From assembly GCF_004010195.1 (NCBI RefSeq), contig NC_057753.1, forward strand, positions 11,580,462 to 11,626,379: DNA of 45,918 bases, read 5' to 3'. The stretch comes from Chiloscyllium plagiosum (taxonomy: Eukaryota). Both the position numbers and the translations under genes were made by a program. The notes beneath the pieces were generated by a model. The model worked only from the letters and a program-made list of their open reading frames with translations, was not told the DNA's origin and searched no databases. Of the stretch, positions 2,986-40,029 are shown piece after piece (within the stretch, counting starts at the first letter, position 1; each line of letters opens with the position of its first letter).

Positions 2986-4056
2986 TCAGCCCTGGATGTG
3001 ATTCTCAGCAGCAAGAACAGCAGAATCCAACTGCAGTCTTAACTGATGAACTCTCTGGTGACTCCGCAGCTTGTATGACTGAATAAATCCCCTCCCACAC
3101 ACAGAGCAGATGAATGGCTTCTCCCCGGTGTGAATTCGCTGATGTTTCAGCAGATTTGATGAATCCCTGAACGCTTTTCCGCAAACGGTGCAGGGGAATG
3201 GTCGCTCCCCGGTGTGGATGTGCTGGTGAGTCAACAGTCGGGTGGATCGAGTGAATCCCTTCCCACACTCAGAGCAGGTGAACTGCCTCTCCCCGGTGTG
3301 AAGTTGCTGGTGTACCCGAAGGCTACCAGAGTGAGCAAATTTCTTCCCGCACTGAGAGCAGGTGAATGGGCACTCCCTGGTATGGACCCGCTCATGTGAC
3401 AGCAGACTGGATAAGCGACTGAATCCCTTCTCACACCTGAAGCAGGTGAATGGCTTCTCCCTGGTGTGAACCCGCTTGTGTGCCATCAATGCAGAAGACT
3501 GAATGAATCCCTGCCCGCACTCCGAGCAAATGAACGGCCTCTCCCCGGTGTGAACTCGCCAGTGTCTCTTCAGGTCGGAGGAATGAGTGAATCCCTTCCC
3601 ACAGTCTGTGCAGGTGAACGGCCTCTCCCCGGTGTGGAAACGTCGGTGACTCTCCAGCCCAGATGGAAACCTGAACCGTTTCCCACAGTCCCCACACTGC
3701 CATGGCTTCTCCACGGTGCTGTTGTCCTTGTGTCCCTCCAGGTTGGATGATGAACTGGAGCCTGAAGTGCCCACACACACAGAACCCCCTGATGGTGTCT
3801 CCTGGAGGAATGTTATTGCAGCAACAACTTCCGCATTCAGACAATAGGGGTGCTCCGATTGGCTGGAGGTCCCGTGCGCTTCCGGTCCTCCAGAGCTGTC
3901 AATTGGATAGTCCGCATGCCTACCTGTCAAGAGCCAGCCAATAGGAGCCGCGGCTGTTCCGGACAAAGGGCCTCGCGCTGCCCCCGTGCTGAGGGAGCTG
4001 GAGGAGGGGAGGGCACTTTGCAACAAATCCCTTCCCTTCATTTTCCTCCAAGGCAT
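2986..4056 (-). CDS. C2H2 zinc-finger protein, 8 tandem fingers (ZNF1); start uncertain
   Basis: Eight CxxC-12-HxxxH fingers with TGERP-type linkers and no stops. First ATG is at 4056; the family's usual Met is GTG (STVEKPW). Confidence 0.8.
   Translation of the reverse strand: MPWRKMKGRDLLQSALPSSSSLSTGAARGPLSGTAAAPIGWLLTGRHADYPIDSSGGPEAHGTSSQSEHPYCLNAEVVAAITFLQETPSGGSVCVGTSGSSSSSNLEGHKDNSTVEKPWQCGDCGKRFRFPSGLESHRRFHTGERPFTCTDCGKGFTHSSDLKRHWRVHTGERPFICSECGQGFIQSSALMAHKRVHTREKPFTCFRCEKGFSRLSSLLSHERVHTRECPFTCSQCGKKFAHSGSLRVHQQLHTGERQFTCSECGKGFTRSTRLLTHQHIHTGERPFPCTVCGKAFRDSSNLLKHQRIHTGEKPFICSVCGRGFIQSYKLRSHQRVHQLRLQLDSAVLAAENHIQG
3822..3945 (-). promoter_or_regulatory. Putative ZNF promoter module (CCAAT / ETS / CCAAT)
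   Basis: ATTGG 3858, CTTCCGG 3879, ATTGG 3902, CCAAT 3938; homologous to 24721-24850. Confidence 0.6.
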
Positions 4057-4195
4057 GTGTTCACACAAAGCCCAGGGTTTCACTGTAACCTCACACTCAC
4101 TGAAACTTCCTCATCTGGCCCACCATAGAGATGTACAACACTGAAACAGACCCTTCAGATCAACTGGTCCATTCTGACCAGATATCCTCAATCTA

Positions 4196-7361: not shown

Positions 7362-8159
7362 TCATGGCTTGTGGATTCGCTGGTGCCTCCGCAGGTTGGA
7401 GGACTGGGTGAAACCCTTCCCGCACCGGGAGCAGGTGAACGGCCTCTCCCCGGTGTGGACCCTCCGGTGCCTCAGCAGCTTGGATGAGTTGCCGAAGGCC
7501 TTCCCGCACAGTGAGCAGGAGAAGGGCCTCTCCCCGGTGTGGACCCGCCGGTGGGTCAGCAGGTTGGACAGCTGGTTGAAGGCCTTGCCGCACTCGGGGC
7601 AGGGGAATGGCCTCTCCCCGGTGTGGACCCGCTGGTGGGTCAGCAGGTTGGAGGAGTTGGCGAAGCCCTTGCTGCACTCGGGGCAGGCGAAAGGCCTCTC
7701 CCCGGTGTGCAGCCGCCGGTGGGCGCGCAGGACGGAGGGGTTGGCAAAGGCCTTGCCGCACTCGGGGCACGGGAAAGGCTTCAGCCCGGCGTGGGCCCGC
7801 TGGTGGGTGCGCAGGACAAAGGGGTTGGCAAAGGCCTTGCCGCACTGAGGGCAGGCGAACGGCCTCTCCCCGGTGTGGAGCCGCCGGTGGGCACGCAGGA
7901 CGGAGGAGTCAGTGAAGCCCATTCCGCACTCGGGGCAGGGGAATGGCTTCTGCCCAGTGTGGATCTGTTGGTGCCTGTGCAGGTGGGAGGACTGGGTGAA
8001 GCCCTTTCCGCAGTGCGGGCAGGCGAACGGCCTCTCCCCCGTGTGGACCCGCCGGTGAATCTCCAGCGCTGACGGCGACAGGAATCCCTTGCCACACTCC
8101 CCACACTTCCACCGTTTCTCCCCGGGGCGGGGGTCCCCGCGCCTCGCCAGGTTGGATCT
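7362..8159 (-). CDS. C2H2 zinc-finger open frame, 9 fingers (ZNF2); first in-frame ATG at 7922
   Basis: Stop-to-stop frame reads ...PGEKRWKCGECGKGF... through nine fingers to RIHKP*; in-frame TAG at 8160-8162. Confidence 0.75.
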   Translation of the reverse strand, partial: RSNLARRGDPRPGEKRWKCGECGKGFLSPSALEIHRRVHTGERPFACPHCGKGFTQSSHLHRHQQIHTGQKPFPCPECGMGFTDSSVLRAHRRLHTGERPFACPQCGKAFANPFVLRTHQRAHAGLKPFPCPECGKAFANPSVLRAHRRLHTGERPFACPECSKGFANSSNLLTHQRVHTGERPFPCPECGKAFNQLSNLLTHRRVHTGERPFSCSLCGKAFGNSSKLLRHRRVHTGERPFTCSRCGKGFTQSSNLRRHQRIHKP

Positions 8160-9283: not shown

Positions 9284-9842
9284 AGTGAGGACTGCAGATG
9301 CTGGAAATCCGAGGCTCTCCCAACTCCTGTACTCAATCTCCATCCTACACACTCTCCAGCCATCCTCACCTCACTGTCCGAATATCTGCCCTCTTCCCCA
9401 TTTTCCAGAAAGGGGCTGATCCTTAAAAAGCTGTAAATCTCGATCTCACACCCTGCGCCTTCATTCTCATTCTGCTCTACCTAACATCGCAGAATGATAC
9501 AAATGTTACGGCACAGGAGGTGATTTCACCGTACCAGCTTATTAAATAAACATCATCCCTTAGTGCCAAATTCCTGTTTTGTCCCCATACCACTGCGCGT
9601 TACTTTTTATGTAAATAACTATCCAATTCCCTCCCAAATGGCCCAATTGAACCTGCCTCCACCACACTTCCAGTCCGCAAAGTAAACTATTCACTGAGTG
9701 AGAAAGGTTTGCCTCTCTTCAACCTTGCTTCATTTGCATCTCATTTTATACACATAATCTCTCATTCGCATTCCTTTTACCAGCAGGAACAGTTTCTCCC
9801 AATCTAGGAGGTAGATTAGGTGGCTCAGTGGTTAGCCCTGCT

Positions 9843-10342
9843 NNNNNNNNNNNNNNNNNNNNNNNNNNNNNNNNNNNNNNNNNNNNNNNNNNNNNNNNNN
9901 NNNNNNNNNNNNNNNNNNNNNNNNNNNNNNNNNNNNNNNNNNNNNNNNNNNNNNNNNNNNNNNNNNNNNNNNNNNNNNNNNNNNNNNNNNNNNNNNNNNN
10001 NNNNNNNNNNNNNNNNNNNNNNNNNNNNNNNNNNNNNNNNNNNNNNNNNNNNNNNNNNNNNNNNNNNNNNNNNNNNNNNNNNNNNNNNNNNNNNNNNNNN
10101 NNNNNNNNNNNNNNNNNNNNNNNNNNNNNNNNNNNNNNNNNNNNNNNNNNNNNNNNNNNNNNNNNNNNNNNNNNNNNNNNNNNNNNNNNNNNNNNNNNNN
10201 NNNNNNNNNNNNNNNNNNNNNNNNNNNNNNNNNNNNNNNNNNNNNNNNNNNNNNNNNNNNNNNNNNNNNNNNNNNNNNNNNNNNNNNNNNNNNNNNNNNN
10301 NNNNNNNNNNNNNNNNNNNNNNNNNNNNNNNNNNNNNNNNNN
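9843..10342. other. Assembly gap (500 N)
   Basis: Run of N; smaller gaps at about 4543-4584 and 15868-15909. Confidence 0.99.
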
Positions 10343-10478
10343 AACCGAATTTTCAATTGCATATTCGCTCGGTCTCGGCTCACTGTGCGAAAGCCTCGAG
10401 CACACATCACAGAAAATCTGGTAGTTGTGGGTACAAATAGGAGCAGCAAGTTGGTGAGTGACTTTTTTTATTAAAATT

Positions 10479-11465: not shown

Positions 11466-11473
11466 TTGATGTG

Positions 11474-11748
11474 ATTTGGAGATGCCGGTGTTGGACTGGG
11501 GTGTACAAAGTTAAAAATCTCACAACACCGGGTTATAGTCCAACAGGTTTGATTGGAAGCACTAGCTTTCGGAGCATCACTCCTTCATCAGGTGGTTGTG
11601 GAGAATAAAACTGTAAGACACAGAATTTATAGCAAAAGTTTACAGTGTGGATATAACTGGAATTATATATTGAAAAAGACCTGGATTGTTTGTTAAGTCT
11701 CTCATCTTTTAGAATGTTAAAAATCACACAACACCAGGTTATAGTCCT
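11474..11748 (-). mobile_element. PLE terminal repeat family B
   Basis: Reverse complement of 421-648. Confidence 0.65.
11560..11594 (-). ncRNA. Minimal hammerhead ribozyme motif (family B, intact core)
   Basis: cac-CTGATGA-A-GGAGT-gat-GCTCC-GAAAG-CTA-gtg; stem I cac/gtg, AGCT palindrome as stem III. Confidence 0.75.
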
Positions 11749-11750
11749 TT

Positions 11751-12074
11751 AGATTTTTTTTTTAAGATTCCCTCCAGTGTGGAAACAGGCCCTTCGGCCC
11801 AACTAGTCCACACCAACCCTCCGAAGAATAACCCACCCAGATCCATTTCCCTCTGACTAATGTACCTAACGCTACGGGCAATTTAGCATGGCCAATTCAC
11901 CTGACCTGCACATCTTTGGACTGTGGGAGGAAAGCCGGAGCACCCGGAGGAAACCCACGCAGACACGGGGAGAACGTGCAAACTCCACACAGTCAGTTAC
12001 CCGAGGCTGGAATCAAACCTGGGACCCTGGTGCTGTGAGGCAGCCGTGCTAACCAGCGAGCCACCGTACCGCCC
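11751..12074 (-). mobile_element. HE1-like V-SINE
   Basis: Same head, body and tail as 10479-10778. Confidence 0.85.
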
Positions 12075-12076
12075 CT

Positions 12077-12566
12077 TATTTGGAAGCACTACCTTTTGGA
12101 GCGCCGCTCCATCAGGTGGTTAGCAGCAGCGCTCCGAAAGCTAATGTGCTTCCAATTAAACCTGTTGGACTATAACCTGGTGTTGTGTGATTTTTAACTT
12201 TGTACACCCCAGTCCAACACCGGCGTCCCCAAATCTTTTAGAATGACCTTGTTGGTTTCGCTTCTTTCATATATGTAAATCGCAAAACGTTTTTTAAAAG
12301 TTACATTCTCAAGCGAACTTTAACAACTGGTGTCATGTCGGCCCAGATAAGGTTCCGAAGGTGTGAGACTGTCTGTGCCACAATGGTCAGACTGATTCTA
12401 ATCTAAGATTTACATGGATTCATGCAGTTTTTGAGCAAAGTAAAATGTAATTCTGCAAGTGCGAATTCACCCCACAAACTTATATGTCTATGTGTGCACG
12501 TGGGTTGTTGTGTTCTTCCAGCCTCCTGCTTGTGTACTTTGGATCCCAGCATTTGCAGTTTCTTTT
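12077..12566. mobile_element. Rearranged PLE family B repeats with an inverted junction
   Basis: Head-to-head decayed hammerhead halves at 12081-12150, followed by further PLE-like UTR. Confidence 0.55.
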
Positions 12567-14011: not shown

Positions 14012-16921
14012 AGTCATAGAGGTGTACAGCATGGAAACAGACCCTTTGGTCCAACCCGTCCATGCCGACCAGATATCCCAACCCAATCTAGTCCCACCTG
14101 CCAGCGCCCGGCCCATATCCCTCCAAACCCTTCCTATTCATATACCCATCCAAATGCCTTTTAGATTTACAATTGTACCAGCCTCCACCACTTCCTCTGG
14201 CCGCTCATTCCATACACGTACCACCCTTTGTGTGAAAAAGTTGCCCTTAAGTCTCTATTATATCTTTCCCCTCTCACCCTCTAGTTCTGGACTCCTCCAT
14301 CCCAGGGAAAAGACCTTATCTATTTATCTTATCCATGCCCCTTATGATTTTATAAACCTCTATAAGGTCTCCCCTCAGCCTCCGACACCCCATGGAAAAC
14401 AGCCCCAGCCTGTTCATTCTCTCCTTGTAGCTCAAACCCTCCAACCCTGGCAACATCCTTGTCAATCTTTTCTGAACCCTTTCACATTTCACAACATCTT
14501 TCCGATAGGAAGGTGACCAGAATTGCAGGCAATATTCCAACAGTGGCTTAACCAATGTCCTGTACAGGTGCAATATATCCTCCCAACTCCTGTACTCAAT
14601 ACTCTGGCTGATAAAGGAAAATATACCAAACGCCTCCTTCATTATCCTATCTAGCTGCGACTGCACTTTCAAAGAGCTATGAACCTGCACTCCAAGGTCT
14701 CTATGTTCAGCAACACTCCCTAGGACCTTACCATTAAGTGTATAAGTCCTGCTAAGATTTGCTTTCCCAAAATGCAGCACCTCGCATTTATCTGAATTAA
14801 ACTCCATCTGCCGCTTCTCAACCCATTAGCCCATCTGGTCCAGATCCTGTTGTAATCTGAGGTAACCCTCTTTGTTGTCCACTACACCCTCCAATCTTGG
14901 TGTCATCTGCAAACTTACTAACTATACCTCTTTTGCTCACATTCAAATCATTTATATAAATGACGAAAAGTACTGGACCCAGCACCGATCCTTGTGGCAC
15001 TCCACTGGTCACAGGCCTCCAGTCTGGAAAACAACCCTCCAACACCACCCTCTGTCTTCTACCTTTGAGCCAGTTCTGTATCCAAATGGCTAGTTCTCCC
15101 TGTATTCTGTGAGATCTAACCTTGCAAACCAGTCTCCCATGGGGAACCTTGCCAAATGCCTTACTGAAGTTCATATAGATCACATCTACCACTCTTCCCA
15201 TATCAATTCTGTTTGTTACTTCAAGTTTGTGAGACATGATTTCCCACATGTTGACTATCTCTACCCAAATACATGTATATCCTGTCCCTCAGGATTCCCT
15301 CCAACCACTTGCCCACCACTTAGGTCAGGCTCACTGGTCTATAGTTCCCTGGTTTGTCTTTACCACCCTTCTTAAACAGTGGCACCACGTTTGCTAACCC
15401 CCAATCTTCCAGCACCTCACCTCTGACTATCAATCATACAAGTATCTCAGCAAGAGGCCCAGCAATCACTTCTCTAGCTTCCCACAGAGTTCTGGGGTAC
15501 ACCTGATCAGGTTCTGGGGATTTACCAACTTTTATGCGTTTCAAGACATCCAGCACTTCCTCCTCTGTAATATGGACATTTTTCAAGATGTCACCATTTA
15601 TTTCCCTACAGTCTATATCTTCCATGTCCTTTTCCACAGTAAATACTGATCCAAAATACTCCTTTAATATCTCTCCCATTTTCTGTGGCTCCGCACAAAG
15701 GCCGCCTTGCTGATCTTTAAGGGGCCCTATTCTCTCCCTAGTTACCCTTTTGTCCTTAATGTATTTGTAAAAACCCTTTGGATTCTCCTTAATTCTATTT
15801 GCCAAAGCTATCTCATGTCCCCTTTTGTCCCTCCTGATTTCCCTGTTAAGTATACTCCTACTACCTTNNNNNNNNNNNNNNNNNNNNNNNNNNNNNNNNN
15901 NNNNNNNNNGAAAATTCTTGCCTAATACCGTCAAAATTGGCCTTTCTCCAAATTAGAACTTCAACTTTTAGATCTGGTCTATCCTTTTCCATCACTATAT
16001 TAAAGCTAATAGAATTATGGCCATTGGTCTCCAAATTGCTCCCCCACTGACAACTCAGTCACCTGCCCTGCCTTATTTCCCAAGAGTAGGTCAAGTTTTG
16101 CCCCTTTTCTAGTGGGTACATCCACATACTGAATCAGAAACTTTTCTTATACACACTTAAGAAATTCCTCTCCATCTAAACCCTTAACACTATGGCAGTC
16201 CCAGTCTATGTTTGGAAAGTTAAAATCCCCTACCATAACCACCCTATTTTTCTTACAGATAGCTGAGATCTCCTTAAAAATTTGTTTCTCAATTTCCCTC
16301 TGACTATTAAGGGGTCTATAATACAATTCCAATAAGGTTATCATCCCTTTCTTATTTCTCAGTTCCACCCAAATAACTTCCCTGGATGTATTTCCGGGAA
16401 TACCCTCCCTCCGCACAGCTGTAATACTATCCCTTCTCAAACAGCTGTAATGCTATCCCGTATCAAAAAGGCCACTCCCCTCCTCTCTTGCCTCCCTTTC
16501 TGTCCTTCCTGTAGCATTTGTATCCTGGAACATTAAGCTGCCAGTCCTGCCCATCCCTGAGCCATGTTTCCGTAATTACTATGATATCCCAGTCCCATAT
16601 TCCTAACCATACTCTGAGTTCATCTGCCTTCCCTGTTAGGCCCCTTGCATTGAAATAAATGCAGTTTAATTTATTAGTCCTACCTTGTCCCTGCCTGCCC
16701 TGACTGTTTGATTCACTTCTGTCCTCAACTGTACTAGTCTCAGATTGACCTCTTTCCTCACTGTCTCCCTGGGTCCCACCTCTCCCACCTTACTAGTTTA
16801 AATCCTCCCAAGCAGCTCCAGCAAATCTCCCTGCCAGTATATTAGTCCCCTTCCAATTTTGGTGCAACTCGTCCATCTTGTACAGGTCACTTCTACCCCA
16901 AAAGAGATTCCAATGATCCAA
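14012..16921 (-). mobile_element. Long CR1/HER1-like LINE: ORF1 esterase end, APE endonuclease, RT, 3' tail; internally deleted and disrupted
   Basis: WNLFWGRSDLYKMDELH...GTNILAGRF; YYRP...[38 protein letters not shown]. Confidence 0.9.
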
Positions 16922-22967: not shown

Positions 22968-23745
22968 AAGCCAATTTTGTATCCAATTGGCTAGCTGTCC
23001 CTGAATCCTGTGTGATTGTGTCAGAAAGATTCAGTCTACCATGTGGGTACCTTGTCGAAGCCTTCCTAAAATCCATGTAGACAATGTCTACCACAGAGCC
23101 GTCATCTATCTTCTTGATCACCTCTTCAAAAAACTATCAAATTTGTGAAATATGATTCCCATTACACATAGCCATACTGACTACCCCTAATCAGTCCTTG
23201 TCTTTCCAAATGCATGCAAATCTCTCCACTCCCTTCCAACAACTTATCTACCACTGATGTTAGGCTCATCAGTCTGTGGGTCACTAGCCTTTCTTAAATA
23301 ATGGTACAACATTAGCCATCCTCCGGTTTTCTGGCACCCCACCCACACTTAGAGTCATAGAGATGCACAACACAGAAACAGACCCTCCAATCCAACTCAT
23401 CCATACTGACCAGAAATCCTAAATTAATCTAGTCCAGGACTTGGTCCATATCCCTCTTAACCCTTCCCATTTATATATTCATCCAGATGCCTATTAAATG
23501 TAGTAATTGTACCAGCCTCCACCATTTCCTCTGGCAGCTCATTGCATACACGCACCACCTTCTACATGAGCAAGTTGCCCCTTCGTCTCTTTTATATCTT
23601 TCCCCTCTCACCCTAAACCAATGCCCTCTAGTTCTGGACTCCCTCACCCCAGGGAAAATACATTGTCTGTTTACCCTATCCATGCCCCTCATGATTTTAA
23701 AAACCTCTATATGGTCACCTCTCAGCCTCCGTCCCTCCAGGAAAA
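22968..23745 (-). mobile_element. Two CR1 fragments (RT piece and 3' end)
   Basis: VDIVYMDFRKA; RRLRGDHIEVFKIMRG. Confidence 0.8.
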
Positions 23746-24043
23746 ATTGATTTGCTAAATTGACTCCTCCAGTGCAGTAAGGACTGAAAATATATAGCAT
23801 AGCTACAGTACTATACTAGAAATAATAAATGTACATCAGAGAACCACAAATAATAAATACCATTATGACAAATCTTGACATATCTTTGTCCTATGTTAAA
23901 TTTAAGTTCCCATAAATGCAGGATATTTCCTGGAGATCCCACTCCTTCATTGTGAACATTGTAGATAGGCACATGAGGGAAATAAATTTTCAAGACTTCA
24001 GGGATATAGAGGGGTTCGGGACTAACGAGTTTATTGCACGGAG

Positions 24044-24180
24044 AAGGGCTTATTCCTGAAGAAGGGCTTATGCCCGAAACGTCGATTCTCCTGCTCCTTG
24101 GATGCTGCCTGACCTGCTGCGCTTTTCCAGCAACACATTTTTCAGCTCTGATCTCCAGCATCTGCAGTCCTCACTTTCTC
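24044..24180 (+). mobile_element. Solo PLE family A terminal repeat with hammerhead (24056-24083) and 22-bp TSD
   Basis: CTAACGAGTTTATT(G/A)CACGGAG at 24022-24043 and 24181-24202; CTGAAGA-A-GGGC-TTAT-GCCC-GAAACGTC. Confidence 0.8.
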
Positions 24181-24624
24181 CTAACGAGTTTATTACACGG
24201 AGAGTCAGCATGCAGTCCAGTTAGCAAATGGACAACTTCTGTCCTACAATGACTCTATTGTTGGAAATACATAAGCTAGCTATAGCACAATATTACATGG
24301 CTAGCAATAATAACAATGCACTTTTCTCAGGGAAATATAGATAATGTAAGTCTTATGTACCACAGAACAGCACAAGATTCTCTCTTATATGCATTTGTTA
24401 TCCCCCTAAATGTCGGCCATTTCCTGGAAAGGCCAACCCTTTAATCGAGAATCTTTGGAGAGAGACCATCCTTTGAGCCAGGTAGATAAATCTGTCCAGC
24501 GTGGAGGAGAGAGACCTGGATCAACCTTTCCAGTGTCTGTCCCTCCCCGAAGATTCACTTCCCCTCCCTTCTGTTTCTGCAAGTCCACACTTTAACCCCA
24601 GAATGAAAAAAAGAGAGTGCCGTG

Positions 24625-25782: not shown

Positions 25783-25910
25783 GGAGAAAGTGAGGACTGC
25801 AGATGCTGGAGATCAGAGTCGAGAGTGTGGTGCCGGAAAAGCGCAGCAGGTCAGGCAGCATCCGAGGAGCAGGAAGATTGACGTTTCGGGCATAAGCCCC
25901 TCATCAGGAA
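25783..25910 (-). mobile_element. PLE family A terminal repeat with intact hammerhead core (25880-25907)
   Basis: Minus strand CTGATGA-G-GGGC-TTAT-GCCC-GAAACGTC. Confidence 0.75.
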
Positions 25911-26771
25911 CGAGCCTCACTCACGGGAAACATTAAGAAAACAACTCATACTAACATAAAAACTGGAAAATTATCAGGCCCTGACGGACTTTGATATGTT
26001 TGTCGTGTTTCAATGCCAGCATTCTGTGGTCTGAGTAATTCTCTGCGTGTTAAATGATATGCCGCAAAGACTGGACTTTTATTGAGACTGCTGTCTTGAA
26101 GTTTATTAACTACTGTTACAAGACCTGCTATTTTCACAAAGTCTGTCAAATTTTCACATTTATTGATTTTGCAGCTACACGACGTGACTGTAACAGAAGA
26201 CTTGACTGAATCCGTAACAGGGTCTGAAGATTTTACATCATTCTATGACAGTGGGGAATAAAGATCACATTGACAGGAAATGGAAGGAATTGTGAGAAGT
26301 CAACCCATTCGGAAATCGTACCCTTTATATATATATATATATATAAAAAATGGGTGTTGCTTCTTCCTTTCCCGCTCAAGAACCACGGGATCACTGCAGA
26401 GCCACGCTGTCTTGCCCCTGTTGTCAGACGTTCCCACTGGAATAAGACTTGGTATCCTGTAACAAGACACACACACACAGACGTGTCTGCATCCAAGGTG
26501 GCAAGTTTGGAATCTTCAAAGTACTGAAGTACATGGATGCACTTGCTGGATGATAAACTATCTGCTGGTACCCGCGGTGTGTCCGCGGAGGGAAGATCCT
26601 GAAGAGGAGACGCCTTTGATCACAAAATTTAGAACACGTGGGGATTAAAAAGTGGAGAAACCGAGACTCCCTTTGTAATTCATCTTTGTCACTCGGAGTA
26701 GGCATCTGCTGTACGTTTGTTTTTGAGTCAGATCAGGTCGAAAACCAAACAGACTAATCAAAGAACTGCTC

Positions 26772-27005
26772 TATTCCTGATGAAGGGCTTTCACCCGAAA
26801 CGTCGATTTTCCTGCCCCTCGGGAGCTGCCTGACCTGCTGTGCTTTTCCAGCACCACTCTGATCCAGACTCTTGCAGTCATTGTTTTTACCTAGTTGATT
26901 TTAATCCTACTGCGAATCCTCTTGCAAGGATGCCTGCCTTGAAGAGGTTTCCCTCCTGCTGCCTGACCTGCTGTGCTTTTCCAGCACCGCTCTGATCTAG
27001 ACTCT
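26772..27005 (+). mobile_element. PLE family A partial tandem terminal repeats; hammerhead 26777-26804
   Basis: CTGATGAAGGGCTTTCACCCGAAACGTC; GCTGCCTGACCTGCTGTGCTTTTCCAGCACC occurs twice. Confidence 0.7.
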
Positions 27006-27940: not shown

Positions 27941-28437
27941 GGTGTGCAGATTAGGGTGGATTGGCCGTGCTAAATTACCCATAGTGCCCAGGGATGTGCA
28001 GATTAGGGTGGATCGGCCGTGCTAAATTACCCATAGTGCCCAGGGATGTGCAGGTTAGGGTGTTTTGGCCATGCTAAATTACCCATAGTGCCCGGGGATG
28101 TGCAGGTTAGGGTGGATTGGCCATGCTAAATTACCCATAGTGCCCAGGGATGTGCAGGTTAGGGTGGATTGGCCGTGCTAAATTACCCATAGTGCCCAGG
28201 GATGTGTAGGTTAGGGTGGATTGGCCGTGCTAAATTACCCATAGTGCACAGGGATGTGCAGGTTAGGGTGGATTGGCCATGCTAAATTACCCATAGTGCC
28301 CACGGATGTGCAGGTTAGGGTGGACTGGCCATGCTAAATTACCCATAGTGCCCAGGGATGTGCAAGTTAGGGTGGATTGGCCATGCTAAATTACCCATAG
28401 TGCCCAGGGATGTACAGGATAGGGTGGATTGGCCATG
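27941..28437 (+). repeat. 52-bp tandem repeat, 9 full units plus a partial
   Basis: GGGATGTGCAGGTTAGGGTGGATTGGCCATGCTAAATTACCCATAGTGCCCA with exact 52-bp period. Confidence 0.95.
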
Positions 28438-28448
28438 GGAAATGTGAG

Positions 28449-28648
28449 CTGAAAATGTGTTGCTGGAAAATAGCAGCAGGTCAGGCAGCATCCAGGGAAC
28501 AGGAGAATCGACGTTTCGGGAATTCCTGAAGAAGGACTTATGCCCGAAACGTCGATTCTCCTGTTCCCTGGATGCTGCCTGACCTGCTGCTATTTTCCAG
28601 CAACACATTTTCAGCTCTGATCTCCAGCATCTGCGGTCCTCACTTTCT
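28449..28648. mobile_element. Fold-back PLE family A cassette with hammerhead (28526-28553)
   Basis: 75-bp inverted arms 28446-28520 / 28543-28617; TSD CCATGG(G/A)AAATGTGAG. Confidence 0.8.
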
Positions 28649-29003
28649 CCATGGAAAATGTGAGGCAGCAGGAATAGGACAGGGTCTGGGTGGGAAACTC
28701 TTTGGAGGGACTGCATGGCCTCAATAGGCCAAATGGCCTCTCTCTGCACTGTAGGGATTCTATAGGTAGTACCAAGGCCTGTCTTAAGCAGCCTGGTTAC
28801 CTATTGTGTGGAGATTACACCACATTCTGCCAGTTTCCTTACTACTTGACATGTAATATGCAAGAAAGTATGAAATCTGCAGATGCACCACTGTCAGGTT
28901 TGGAATACAGTGCACGTTGGCCATTCCATTTGGGTACATGACATGGATGGAGGAAAAGGATTCAGCTTTCCTGACGGTACGCGAGTGTGGTGTATTTTTT
29001 TTT

Positions 29004-30730: not shown

Positions 30731-31262
30731 GTTGCCCCGTCCCTAGTTGTGGTGGTGACGAACTGCCTGGGTGTGTAAAGTTGTGCGCTTGGTCTCGTTG
30801 ACATGCTTGCAAGCCACCACAGTGTGGTTTCTTGGGTCAAACCTCACAGCTCGTATGATGGTCCCTCTGTATTAGCTCTTGTCACAAATATATGCGAAAG
30901 CAGATGTATTGAGGTTTCGTCACACAAGCTGTTTATACAGTTGTAACACCTCAGACTTGCACATAGTCTGGGTTCCACGCTTACTGATAGTACGGGGAAA
31001 GTACATGTCTGTAACATGACAAGCAGCTGCACTGACCCCCCCATTGCAATGATAGTACTGGACGTGAGGTAAAAGCCTTTGTAGTGGAATGTGATGAGAT
31101 CTATCCCGGATCTACGCGATAATCCAACATATTCATCTGAGTGTCTGCGCAGGGTTCCTGCTCAAACAGTGGCTGCATGAGTTTTAACTTTCCAAACGTG
31201 TCTGGGCTTGGCAACGGACCCATCCGATTGCAGAACAGTGAACGTGACTCCTCTGTTCAAAG

Positions 31263-31771
31263 AAGTTAAAAATCACACAACACCAGGTTATGGTCCAACA
31301 AGTTTATTTGGAGGCATTGACTTTCGGAACGCTGCTCCTTCATCGGGTGGTTGTGGAGAAGGATCATAAGGCACAGAATTACAGCAACAGGGTTGCAGTG
31401 TCATGGACTGTCTTTAACGTCACACCTTCAATGCACTATCTGAGCTGAGGTGGCATCTCTTGTTAAAAGCTATCTTGAGAATGTAACTTTTAAAAAGTTC
31501 TGGGATTTACATATGAAGGAACCAAAACTAACATGATCATTCTAAAAGGTGAAAGACGTGAGCTAAATTTGTTTAATATTACAGTCCATGACACTGCAAC
31601 CCTGTTCCTGTAATTCTGTGTCTTATGATCCTTCTCCACAGCTACCCGATGAAGGAGCAGCGTTCCGACAGCTAGTGCTTCCGAATAAACCTGTCGCGAC
31701 TATAACCTGGTGTTGGATGATTTTTTTAACTTTGTCCACCCCAGTCCAACACTGGCACCTACACATCATGA
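31263..31771. mobile_element. Fold-back PLE family B cassette
   Basis: Inverted arms about 31263-31411 / 31581-31732; both cores read CCGATGA; TSD CTGTTCAA(A/G)GAAGT. Confidence 0.75.
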
Positions 31772-32048
31772 CTGTTCAAGGAAGTGCAGAGACAGGAAGC
31801 TAGCAATCTACAGACTGGCTATCTTCACATCTATTGTAGTGAAAATGCATGTGCTCATTTATCAAGGGAGATCTATCTGGATATTTAGAAAACTTTAATG
31901 CAAACAGGCAGAGTCAGCATGGTTTTGTGAAAGGGAATTATGTTCAACCAACTTACTGGGGATTTTTTAAACAATAAAGTAAGCAGTGTGGTTCAAGGGG
32001 CACCCAAAACTGTACTGTACTGTGATTCCAAAAGCTGTTTGACATAAC

Positions 32049-32361
32049 GGGTGGCACAGCGGTTAGCACTGCTGCCTCACAGCAGCAGAGACCCGGGTTC
32101 AATTCCTGCCTCAGACGACTGATTGTGTGGAGTTTGCATAATTCTCCCCGTGTCTGCATGGGTTTCCTCCGGGTGCTCCGGTTTCCTTCCACAGTCCAAA
32201 GATGTGCAGGTTAGGTGAATTGGCCATGCTTAAATTACCCGTAGTGTTAAGTGAAGGGGTAAATGTAGGGGAATGGGTATGGGTGGGTTGCGCTTTGGCG
32301 GGTCGATGTGGACTTGTTGGGCCGAAGGGCCTGTTTCCTCACTGTAAGTAATGTAATGTAA
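32049..32361 (+). mobile_element. Full-length HE1-like V-SINE
   Basis: GGTGGCACAGCGGTTAGC head; (GTAAT)n tail. Confidence 0.85.
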
Positions 32362-32811
32362 TAATGACCTTGGATGTGCACTATGCAAAAAAAACATAGC
32401 TCAAACTCATATAACATAGAAACCGATCCTTCGGTCCAACCAGTCCATGCCAACCATAATCCTAAACTAAACTAGTCCCACCTGCCTGCTCCTGGCCCAT
32501 ATCCCTCCAAATCTTTCCTGTTCACGCATTTATCCAAGTATCTCTTAAATGTTGTAACTGTACCCACATCCACTACTTCCTCTGGAAGTTCATTCCACAT
32601 GTGAACCAGTCTGTATGTAAAACAAAACTGCCTTTTTTAAAAGCTTTCTCCTCTCCCCTTGTCTCGAAATCCCCCACCCTAAGGAAAAGACACCTGCCGT
32701 TCACATTATCTATAATCCTCACTATTTTATAAACCTTAGCGAGTTCTGACATTTGTAGCTCAGGTTGAGGTTCTGGACATAGGTTTGCTCGCTGAGCTGG
32801 GAGGTTCATTT

Positions 32812-32851
32812 CCAGACGTTTCGTCACCCTACCAGGTAACATCCTCAGTGG
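32812..32851 (-). ncRNA. Minimal hammerhead ribozyme motif (family C)
   Basis: cca-CTGAGGA-T-GTTACC-tggtag-GGTGAC-GAAAC-GTC-tgg. Confidence 0.78.
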
Positions 32852-33062
32852 GCCTCAGGCAAAGCACTGTTCATGATTCCTGCTTTCTATTTATATATTT
32901 GGGTTGGTGATGCCATTTCCTGTGGTGATATCATTTTATGTTCTTCTCAGGGGTTGGTAGATGGGGTCTAACTCGATGCGTTAGGAAATGACATCACCAA
33001 CCCAAAGAAACCCAAATATATAAATAGAAAGCAGGAATCATGTACAGTGCTTTGCCTGAGGC

Positions 33063-33102
33063 CCACTGAGGATGTTACCTGGTAGGGTGATGAAACGTCT
33101 GG
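33063..33102 (+). ncRNA. Minimal hammerhead ribozyme motif (family C, second arm)
   Basis: cca-CTGAGGA-T-GTTACC-tggtag-GGTGAT-GAAAC-GTC-tgg. Confidence 0.72.
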
Positions 33103-34437
33103 AAATGAACCTCCCAGCTCAGCGAGCAAACCTACATCCATTTTATAAACCTCCTACCCTCCAGTGAAAAAAGTTCCAGCCTATCCCATAACTCAAACCC
33201 TCCCTTCCCAGCAGCATTCTGATAAATCTCTTCTGAACCCTCTCCAGCTGAATAATACCATTCCTATGGCAGGGAGGCCAGAACGGGACAGAGTACTCCA
33301 GAAGGGGCCACACCAACGTCCCGTACAACCCCAAGCTCGTCACGTGAGAGTGAAGGAACAGCGTGGATAGAGGGTTAGTAAGCTACCAGGAAACAGAGTC
33401 GGGCACGAATGGGTCAGGCAAGATGTGAGGAGCGAAATGCCACAGGGATCAGCGCAGGGGCTTCAGCGCTTTACAATTTATATCAATGACCTGGATGAAA
33501 AGAAAAACCGAACGTATGATTGCCAAATTTGCTGATGACACAATGGCAGGGTGGAAGGTAAGCTGCGAAAGAGAATGTGAGGTATAAAGTGTGGCTCAAT
33601 GGGCAAAACTGGGGCAGCTTCTAAACTTGGGGGAAAGTGAACTTGCTCACAGCTCGGCAGGAAGAATGCAATAGCTGCATCCTATTTGTACAGACAGATT
33701 GCAGAATCCTGAGGGGCAGAGGGATCTGGGGGACCTGGAACCTGAATCACTAAAGTTAGCACGTGGTCGCAGCAAGTAATTAAGGCGGCAAGCTGAATAT
33801 TGTTGTTTATGGCAAAGGTCGGGGGGGGGGGGGGGGTGGATGTTGGAATATAAAAGTAGGGATCATCGAATCATACACTACAGTAGAGTCTGGACTGGAC
33901 TGGCAAATCTGCACTGAGTCTACACTTGCCCACACTAGCCTTTGAATGTTTGGACACTTCACGCGCTCATCCAAAGCACTTTTTGAAAGTTGCGAGGTTT
34001 CCCGCCTCAACTATCCTCCCAGGCAATGCATCCCAGACCCACCACCACCCTCTGGGTGAAAATGACTGTCCTCCAATGCCCCGTAAACCTCCTGCCTTTC
34101 ACCTCCAGCGTCTCGCTGTAGCTGTACACGGGGCGTTGACAGTGCCACACCTGGAGCATGGCGCATGCTTTTTTGTTCCTCATCTAGGAAAGGAAATAAC
34201 TGCATTAGGAAGATTCACAAGGTACACGGCACCTGCTTGCGGTCCGACAGGTCTGTCTGAAACCACAAGCTCCCGGAACGTCGCTGCTTCGTCAGGTGAA
34301 GTGGGACAGAGAAGGAGCAGTGCTCCCAGAGCTCGTGGTTTCAAATGAACCTGTCCGACCGTAACTCAGTGTGTGTGTGTGTGACTTCTGACTTCGTCCA
34401 CCTCAGCCCGACACCGGCAACTCCACCTCGGGGCAAG

Positions 34438-37482: not shown

Positions 37483-38325
37483 TCACTTGTGAAGACGCTG
37501 GTGCCTCAGTAGGTTGGATATCTGAGTGAATCCCTTCCCACACTCAAGGCAGTTGAACGGCTTCTCCCTGGTGTGCACTCGCTGGTGCGTGCGCAGGCTG
37601 GACGAGTGGGTGAAACGCTTCCCGCACTCAGAGCAGGTGAACGGCCTCTCCCCGGTGTGGACACGCTGGTGTCTCAGCAGGTTGGATGAGTCACCGAACC
37701 CCTTCCCGCACACCGAGCAGGTGAACTGCCTCTCCCCGGTGTGGACACGCTGGTGGGTCAGCAGGTTGGACGACTGAGTGAACCCCTTCCCGCACACGGA
37801 GCAGGTGAACGGCCTCTCCCCGGTGTGGACCCGCTTGTGGGTCAGCAGAGCCGACGAGTCGCTGAAGCCCTTCCCGCACACCGGGCAGCTGAAGGGCCTC
37901 TCCCCGGTGTGGACCCGCTGGTGGGTCAGCAGGGCGGACGAATGAGTGAACCCCTTGCCGCACTCTGAGCAGACGAACGGCCTCTCCCTGGTGTGGACTC
38001 GCCGGTGCATCTGCAGGTTGGAGGACTGACTGAAGCCCTTGCCGCACACGGAGCAGGTGAACGGCCTCTCGCCGGTGTGAATGCGCTGGTGCGTCAGCAG
38101 GGCGGAGGAATCAGTGAATCCCTTCCCACAATCCCGGCAGGTGTACGGCTTCTCCCTGGTGTGGACCCGCTGGTGGGTCAGCAGGGCGGACGAGTGAGCG
38201 AAGCCCTTGCCGCACACGGAGCAGGTGAACGGCCTCTCGCCGGTGTGAATGCGCCGATGGGTTTCGAGGGCAGACGGGGAACAGAATCCTTTCCCGCAGT
38301 CCCCGCATTTCCACCGTTTCTCCAT
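37483..38325 (-). CDS. C2H2 zinc-finger protein, 10 tandem fingers, no effector domain (ZNF3)
   Basis: accATGg start, [14 protein letters not shown], ten intact fingers, stop after RLHK. Confidence 0.9.
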
Positions 38326-38664
38326 GGTGCGGATATCCTCGTCTCTTCCCCCAGGTCTGAGGATCAGATGAAGCCTAATTCACAGGCAGGACACACATGC
38401 GGTATCTCCGCACCGCGAACAGCGAGACATCCCCAGTCTGTCCAACCAGTTAAAGCTATCTCCACAGCCAGTTCAATAGAACACACTCTCACCCGGGGGT
38501 GTGTGTGTGTGTGTGTGTGTCTGAGCACACTCCTAGTCACACCGGTGTTTGAAAGCTTCTGAAGCAGACAGAACACGATTAAAATGTTGATATATAGGTC
38601 CCAGTGAATCGAGGCTTTGGCGTGATGCTTGATTTGAGATTTTGAATCCTCCCCGTCCAACGTA

Positions 38665-39365: not shown

Positions 39366-39724
39366 TCTGGCCTCTGTGGAACATGCTTTTTCTTTCCATG
39401 TTTCCAAAGGCTGTAAATCTCCACCGCCCCACACATACCCCCCTCCATTCACACTGCACAATGACCGCGGTAGAAAGGTTTGGCCTGTGAAGTTTCCAAA
39501 CCGGGAGCGTTTACTTTGACATCCGTCGGTCATTAAAAGCCGAGAACGCTGAAGCTTTCAGTTTTCAGACCTGGGGTGAATCTACTCGAGTTGAACCTGA
39601 AGCTGTGGAGGGGCAATTTCTCCAGATTCGATCTAGGTTTTAGTTTTGATTTCAGAAGTGTAAAGGATCTTTTTACCGTAACTGGGAATGGATGTTGGGT
39701 GCTGTCATATAGCTGATATAACAG

Positions 39725-39920
39725 AGTCGAGAATGTGGTGCGGGAAAAGCACAGCAGCATCCGAGGAGCAGGAGAATCGATGTTTCAGGCATAAGCCCTT
39801 CATCAAATGCCCAAAACGTCGATTCTCCTGCTCCTCGGATGCTGCCTGACCTGCTGTGCTTTTCCGGCACCACATTCTCAACTCTGATCTCCAGCATCTG
39901 CAGTCCTCACTTTCTCCTCC
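39725..39920. mobile_element. Fold-back PLE family A cassette, hammerhead cores truncated
   Basis: Inverted arms around 39806; ATATAACAG at 39716-39724 and 39925-39933. Confidence 0.7.
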
Positions 39921-40029
39921 TGCAATATAACAGGGCAGTTTTGCAAATTGGAAAAAGAAGGCGCTTTTTTTTTAAATTAAAGCTGGGTAAAACCACATTG
40001 TTTTTGGATCAGGAAGAGTTTGTTTCTTT

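Follow-up and report, generated by a model that had tools for sequence, protein, structure and literature searches.

A probable Penelope-like insertion with a head-to-head, doubly 5′-truncated layout and two outward-facing hammerhead motifs in a LINE fragment of Chiloscyllium plagiosum

Described Penelope-like insertions and the plan of the locus

An inverted, 5′-truncated copy together with a tail of 30–40 bp at one end is, in the accessible text of Craig et al. 2021 (PMC8557442), typical of the insertions of Penelope-like elements (PLEs). The available sections of Arkhipova et al. 2013 (PMC3846280) describe pLTRs in a head-to-head inverted arrangement, with a target-site duplication (TSD) of 9–10 bp, a 31-bp tail and the first codons of the ORF lying within the pLTR. 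Dual minimal hammerhead ribozymes (min-HHRs) on opposite strands, 100–700 bp apart, are reported in the accessible part of Cervera and De la Pena 2014 (PMC4209133). For PAc, the Poseidon element of Anolis carolinensis, the available portion of Frangieh et al. 2024 (PMC11167929) places the ATG at stem II, the cut 26 nt downstream of the ORF start and the start of reverse transcription (RT) at +111–118, with the tail lying between two RT start sites; PAc is able to cut both strands in vitro and to extend them, a dimeric form is predicted for it, and the steps after priming are left unvalidated in that text. Retrozymes, to go by the accessible parts of PMC7229834 and bioRxiv 10.64898/2026.07.22.740005, are direct tandem repeats.

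Here we analyse an insertion in a window of 45,918 nucleotides – the whole stretch of DNA that was analysed – from Chiloscyllium plagiosum. The insert comprises 403 bp (32737–33139) bracketed by two identical 13-mers, ATTTTATAAACCT. We take it to be a single, dead-on-arrival, doubly 5′-truncated insertion of an endonuclease-bearing (EN+) Penelope-like retrotransposon from an abundant family, a reading to which we give a probability of about 0.88. The features found that characterise EN+ PLEs are a pLTR with a minimal type I hammerhead, an inverted 5′-truncated copy, a 38-nt tail at one end only and an AT-rich TSD. The layout is an ordinary one: it is a known PLE integration product, and the locus is a clean example of it. 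The parts of the insert and of its host sequence, as we read them, are as follows.

32425–32736, minus strand: left part of the host LINE fragment, 70–84% identical to many copies in the window and collinear with them up to the TSD
32724–32736, plus strand: left TSD, 13 bp, exact ATTTTATAAACCT; 11 other LINE copies in the window each hold the motif once
32737–32982, minus strand: primary 5′-truncated PLE copy, 246 nt, with the tail at its end (alignment of the arms; public contigs)
32737–32774, minus strand: PLE ‘tail’, 38 nt, at one end only (alignment; contig ends with unrelated flanks at or near 32737)
32922–32982, minus strand: central spacer, 61 nt, high-copy family sequence (depth in public contigs; other copies run upstream in frame, by hand reading)
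32982–32983, no strand: blunt head-to-head inversion junction, with no microhomology on either side; family sequence continues past it
32983–33139, plus strand: inverted 5′-truncated PLE copy, 157 nt, tailless, ending at the short 3′ terminus of the family
33140–33152, plus strand: right TSD, 13 bp, exact ATTTTATAAACCT; its first A also fits the element
33153–33327, minus strand: right part of the host LINE fragment, without 22 bp beside the TSD

An exact 13-bp duplication has a chance expectation of about 2e-8 per position, or 2e-7 with 11 positions of play. The 13-mer occurs exactly once in each of eight other LINE copies in the window, and with one mismatch in three more; since it belongs to the host LINE it is the duplicated target, and these paralogous copies display its empty state. 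The target is AT-rich (11 of 13 positions are A or T) and begins ATT. On either side of the insert the flanking sequence runs collinear with LINE copies elsewhere in the window. An earlier, sequence-only reading had proposed a 403-bp insertion with a perfect 13-bp TSD, splitting a CR1 fragment. The extent and the duplication, exact on both sides, are confirmed, and the collinear flanks bear out the interruption of a LINE; the name CR1, however, is one that we assume from a C-terminal peptide motif, not from a library match. The host LINE has lost 22 bp immediately beyond the right TSD (33152/33153), a deletion with 3-bp microhomology: in this check nine of 11 LINE copies were compared (those at 23694 and 2163 were left out), and seven of the nine hold the full segment.

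The insert consists of two pieces placed head-to-head – 246 nt of minus-strand and 157 nt of plus-strand orientation – that meet at 32982/32983. Aligned with one another, the arms (32775–32921 and 32983–33139) share 147 nt, in agreement with the inverted arms of about 150 bp or more proposed earlier; they differ by five substitutions (three at CpG sites, by hand reading), and the left arm lacks 10 bp, a divergence of 3.4% plus the indel. The left piece exceeds the right by 38 nt at its 3′ end and by 61 nt at its 5′ end. The former had been described as a unique extension of about 38 bp: the length stands, and the stretch is indeed unique within the insert, but elsewhere it is the tail of the family, present as such in public contigs.

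Set against the accessible descriptions of EN+ Penelope-like elements, the locus is alike in its head-to-head inverted copy, its one-end tail in the 30–40-bp range, its TSD, the first codons within the pLTR and a TATA-like box. It differs in that both copies are shorter than 250 nt and hold no ORF body, in a TSD of 13 bp as opposed to 8–10 bp, and in a junction without a palindrome.

Hammerheads, fold and coding traces

Four further features lie within the arms.

32812–32851, minus strand: minimal type I hammerhead of the left arm (motif and fold reading), predicted to cut after 32815
33063–33102, plus strand: second minimal hammerhead, in the right arm (motif and fold reading), predicted to cut after 33099
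32888–32897, minus strand: TATA-like box of the left arm, read from sequence, with a mirror copy at 33017–33026 (plus strand)
32738–32842, minus strand: candidate first 35 codons of the PLE ORF (ATG within the hammerhead core; PAc-like geometry; 25/36 identity to the N-terminus of P0002, see below)

The two hammerhead cores (CUGAGGA..GAAA-CG-UC) start at 32848 on the minus strand and 33066 on the plus strand and point outward, just as the sequence-only reading had it. The left hammerhead combines the CUGAGGA core with an extra U between 9 and 10.1, a G10.1–C11.1 pair, a 7-bp stem II, a palindromic ACGU stem III and a 3-bp stem I; the right carries a G10.1–U11.1 wobble after CpG decay. As far as the available descriptions of metazoan PLE min-HHRs extend, the likeness covers the type I core, the extra nucleotide at 9/10.1, G10.1–C11.1, the long stem II and short stem I, the palindromic 15.2–16.2 and the occurrence of pairs on opposite strands, whereas stem I has 3 bp here and 4–5 bp in the Schistosoma families, and the G–U wobble sets the right copy apart. 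Non-LTR retrozymes, in the accessible accounts, are likewise short, hammerhead-bearing and PLE-related, with a large TSD; their same-strand hammerheads, however, release monomers and circles, while here each strand of an inverted arrangement bears a single hammerhead. Membership in this class was ruled out, the two copies being inverted, with no direct tandem units bearing same-strand hammerheads.

Rfam gave no matches at gathering across the window. Around the element, at E values up to 10, it gave five weak matches, none of them a hammerhead, the best being to a generic miRNA-hairpin model and far below the gathering score of that model. The MFE of the strand is −301.8 kcal/mol (z = −35 against 100 shuffles). 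In a lone arm the hammerhead is predicted weakly, with a pair probability of 0.04–0.10 for stem II and of about 0 for stem I, and a read-through RNA from either strand would pay 75–77 kcal/mol for the ribozyme fold. Because of that cost, the earlier expectation that a transcript of either strand would contain one ribozyme holds in sequence but not in fold. The hammerheads are most likely passengers of the pLTR, predicted to be locked within the hairpin in any read-through RNA; self-cleavage is an activity that their motifs would imply, and the TATA-like boxes of both arms may, from their letters, be promoter elements. In the MFE structure the tail and part of the left TSD (32727–32772) fold into a little hairpin of their own, probably by chance.

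The insert had been thought to hold no coding sequence, and this is probably wrong: its arms carry frames that resemble the end and the start of a PLE ORF, without a match to a PLE protein. From an ATG in the hammerhead core an open frame runs for 35 codons up to the tailed end, a length with a 16% probability of arising by chance. Counted from this ATG, the predicted cut falls at +28 and the two ends, short and tailed, at +68 and +106 respectively. PAc, in the available part of its description, is alike in the ATG at stem II, in a cut 26–28 nt downstream, in two 3′ termini that bound a tail and in AT-rich targets; its RT start lies at +111–118, the tailed end here at +106. The likeness is one of geometry.

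The one homologue found for the 35-codon frame is the N-terminus of an RP9 isoform X2 model from Hemiscyllium ocellatum (P0002), with 25 of 36 residues identical. As a sequence match it places the family in a carpet shark; the protein is a host gene model, not a PLE protein. Residues 1–36 of P0002 start with the ATG frame of the insert’s PLE family, and its start suggests either an exonised pLTR serving as an alternative first exon or an artefact of the gene model.

The minus strand of the spacer encodes the peptide RIELDPIYQPLRRT (32980–32939), and the right arm holds 33 open codons that stop in the hammerhead; both, we presume, resemble the C-terminus of a PLE ORF, and the spacer peptide the C-termini of PLE endonucleases; the spacer is the probable C-terminal part of such an ORF. 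The right-arm frame (32984–33085) ends within stem II, sharing positions with the ATG that follows, so that the end and the start of the ORF appear to overlap within the ribozyme. In public contigs the number of 18-bp in-frame tandem units at 32904–32940 varies within the family. The ORF identity of the open frames in the arms we infer from sequence. The 35-residue frame found no matches by phmmer among 1.84 billion representatives, and word searches with the spacer peptide and the right-arm frame – weak queries, padded with unrelated residues – likewise found none. Pfam gave no families for P0001, and the ESM Atlas no usable match for the parent protein. Protein searches thus retrieved neither an autonomous parent nor a PLE protein, their sole match being the host protein model with the same short frame.

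The family in public contigs and its neighbours in the window

Contigs from four of 24 candidate runs (X2, X3, X10 and X12) were compared, at a likeness of 90, with positions 32340–33008, a stretch that takes in the left flank and left piece and reaches 26 nt into the right arm. One X3 contig shows no differences from the left flank over 108 bases, and the organism of that run is therefore the same or a very close species; another X3 contig shows one difference. A contig of X12 (organism B) differs from the flank at 10 positions, with one gap, in 117; set beside the 3.4% between the arms, this distance weakly predicts an empty site in organism B. Summed depth reaches 12,000–33,000 times that of the flank in one arm bin and 2,600–8,400 times in the spacer, ratios that are not copy numbers; given this excess over single-locus depth, the spacer is family sequence. 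We put the PLE family at roughly 10^4 copies in the genome.

Past the junction depth falls in all four runs, by factors of 9.7, 12.3, 11.8 and 16.3. The residue amounts to 270–690 single-locus equivalents, at most 6–10% of spacer depth, and may come from arm contigs that fit the 26-nt mirror or from copies that span the junction. Among the loose ends listed (24 of 1744, for all positions), those past 32982 run into other sequence in at least 16 contigs of X3 and at least eight of X12, and by hand reading these continuations, among the loose ends listed, are in frame with upstream family sequence. Both outer ends can be recognised among the loose ends listed: at the site equivalent to the right-arm terminus at least 60 contigs each of X3 and X10 and at least 74 of X12 pass into unrelated AT-rich flanks, and at the tail terminus there are at least three ends in X2 (at 32738) and at least 32, with a variant of the tail, in X10. 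A joint in organism B from 32896 to 32983, of depth 12–16 (among the 15 of 163 joints listed), reads as what may be another copy with a different junction. Joints from 32936 to 32904–32906 and from 32926 to 32910 were considered as recurrent inversions and rejected; by hand reading they fit copy-number variants of the 18-bp tandem unit. Pattern scans of metagenomes returned no loci and then five, all five of them chance matches of 19–23 nt.

Within the window, a relaxed hammerhead motif scan gave 20 matches, 12 of which were assigned by eye to three hammerhead families. There are five other inverted hammerhead pairs. Three of these have a TSD and a one-sided tail of 32–39 nt, and the inverted layout with a one-sided tail is thus generic in the window:

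31267–31771 (31253–31785 with TSDs): fold-back of another PLE-type family; TSD 14 bp with one mismatch, tail 39 nt
28447–28648 (28433–28662 with TSDs): fold-back of another PLE-type family; TSD 14 bp with one mismatch, tail about 32 nt (hand reading)
39725–39924 (39716–39933 with TSDs): fold-back of another PLE-type family; TSD 9 bp, tail 38 nt

These three TSD-bounded neighbours come from two other PLE-type families. Neighbouring fold-backs vary among themselves in size and centre, and two are near-perfect palindromes. The family of the 403-bp insert has one copy only in the window. For the inverted pairs at 25824–26860 and 11473–12235 no adjacent TSD was found.

The depth profile and the neighbours bear on the proposal that the insert is a self-propagating, non-autonomous ribozyme unit: a fold-back with a fixed junction, transcribed and re-inserted whole by PLE proteins. 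We found no positive evidence for such a unit and regard it as very unlikely. The clean ends and the perfect TSD would suit it, pLTRs are able, in the accessible text of PMC3846280, to mobilise enclosed sequence in trans, and depth past the junction is above zero. Yet that depth is down 10–16-fold, copies running upstream instead; the ribozyme, at 75–77 kcal/mol, is predicted to be unable to fold in read-through RNA; the neighbours are unlike each other in size and centre; and the family is represented by a single copy in the window. That the cassette belongs to a small, MITE-like, PLE-derived subfamily re-inserting whole, hidden within the residual 6–10% of depth, is similarly a long shot. 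Our literature search, whose coverage excluded most subscription papers, yielded nothing on a fixed-junction fold-back PLE family or on fold-back or non-autonomous PLEs in sharks, and no PLE structure on point. The other possibility raised by the sequence-only reading, an inverted and truncated PLE insertion, is by contrast well supported by the published layout, the family termini, the continuation of family sequence past the junction and the three like neighbours.

Formation of the inverted arm and setting of the locus

At 32801, 32833 and 32844 both arms hold letters found in only 1.5–8% of family depth, and for this reason both can be assigned to one minor subfamily. The arms differ at 32871 (T/A), a site that varies within the family (7–25% of depth), and the 10 bp absent from the left arm are present in the right arm and in the family (loose end at 32905, among those listed). 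The anatomy of the insert, its TSD, the family membership of every part, the coincidence of the outer ends with family termini and the shared subfamily letters are directly established.

The abundance of the family, the divergence of the arms (3.4% plus an indel) and the 22-bp deletion adjoining the right TSD might suggest that two solo pLTRs came together, through separate insertions or through inversion or repair after insertion, but we consider either highly improbable: one exact TSD encloses the pair with no second TSD inside, both outer ends are 3′ termini of the family, and the same three rare letters stand in both arms. The notion of an assembly artefact, a collapsed or mirrored repeat, is scarcely credible. 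No contig piece crosses 32736 or spans the element among the 32 of 95,188 pieces listed, and the available text of PMC8557442 notes assembly trouble with such structures; against this, the arms are non-identical (five substitutions, the 10-bp indel and CpG sites decayed in opposite directions), the two TSD copies agree exactly, and X3 contigs reproduce the left flank with zero and one differences.

For a PLE insertion, our preferred reading, the following course may be envisaged. The PLE RT-endonuclease would have cut both strands 13 nt apart at an AT-rich site in an old LINE. One 3′ end would have primed at the outer start site, with the 38-nt tail kept, and synthesis would have stopped after 246 nt; the other would have primed at the inner start site, tailless, with a further copy of the repeat as template, whether a pLTR in tandem within the same RNA or one in a separate RNA, and synthesis would have ended at 157 nt. 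Blunt, head-to-head joining of the cDNAs would have followed, with fill-in creating the TSD. Priming on both strands, and the number of templates, we infer. Since the same 147 bases are present in both arms, two template copies, or a fold-back, are required.

The fold-back alternative leaves the PLE classification unchanged and differs in mechanism alone: the inverted arm would have arisen by self-priming of the first cDNA, trimmed by the endonuclease. We hold this to be possible, if doubtful. PMC3846280 proposes self-priming, and PMC8557442 that the endonuclease resolves the tail, as far as the accessible text of each extends; the arms share rare subfamily letters, as a self-copy would, and two neighbouring fold-backs are near-perfect palindromes. 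However, neither microhomology nor snap-back complementarity was found at 32982/32983, so that nothing there could seed a snap-back, and for this reason two primings joined blunt are weakly favoured over self-priming. Also against a self-copy, the right arm has 10 family bp that the left lacks, and the T/A by which the arms differ at 32871 segregates in the family (7–25%), although both differences could post-date the insertion. The discordant letter at 32871 hints, tentatively, that a dimeric enzyme used different pLTR templates for the two arms, an idea towards which we remain more sceptical than persuaded.

For the question of how PLEs form the inverted arm, a single locus has little weight and its value is collective: with some 10^4 short copies and letters diagnostic of subfamilies, counts of concordance between arms could separate two-template priming from fold-back self-copying. 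Were the junction to recur at many loci, the structure would be an undescribed non-autonomous form of PLE, and more noteworthy.

Several minor observations concern the setting of the locus. The inverted pair at 11473–12235 appears to be interrupted by a SINE-like insert, and a solo 141-bp PLE end with a hammerhead lies at 24024–24200, between 18-bp direct repeats with one mismatch. Assembly gaps fall at about 9830–10350 and near 15900, with 584 N in total. Arrays of C2H2 zinc fingers occur at 2986–4110, 7362–8159 and 37483–38379 (minus strand); the window has the look of a cluster of ZNF genes, and about 4.3 kb separate the third array from the element downstream of it.
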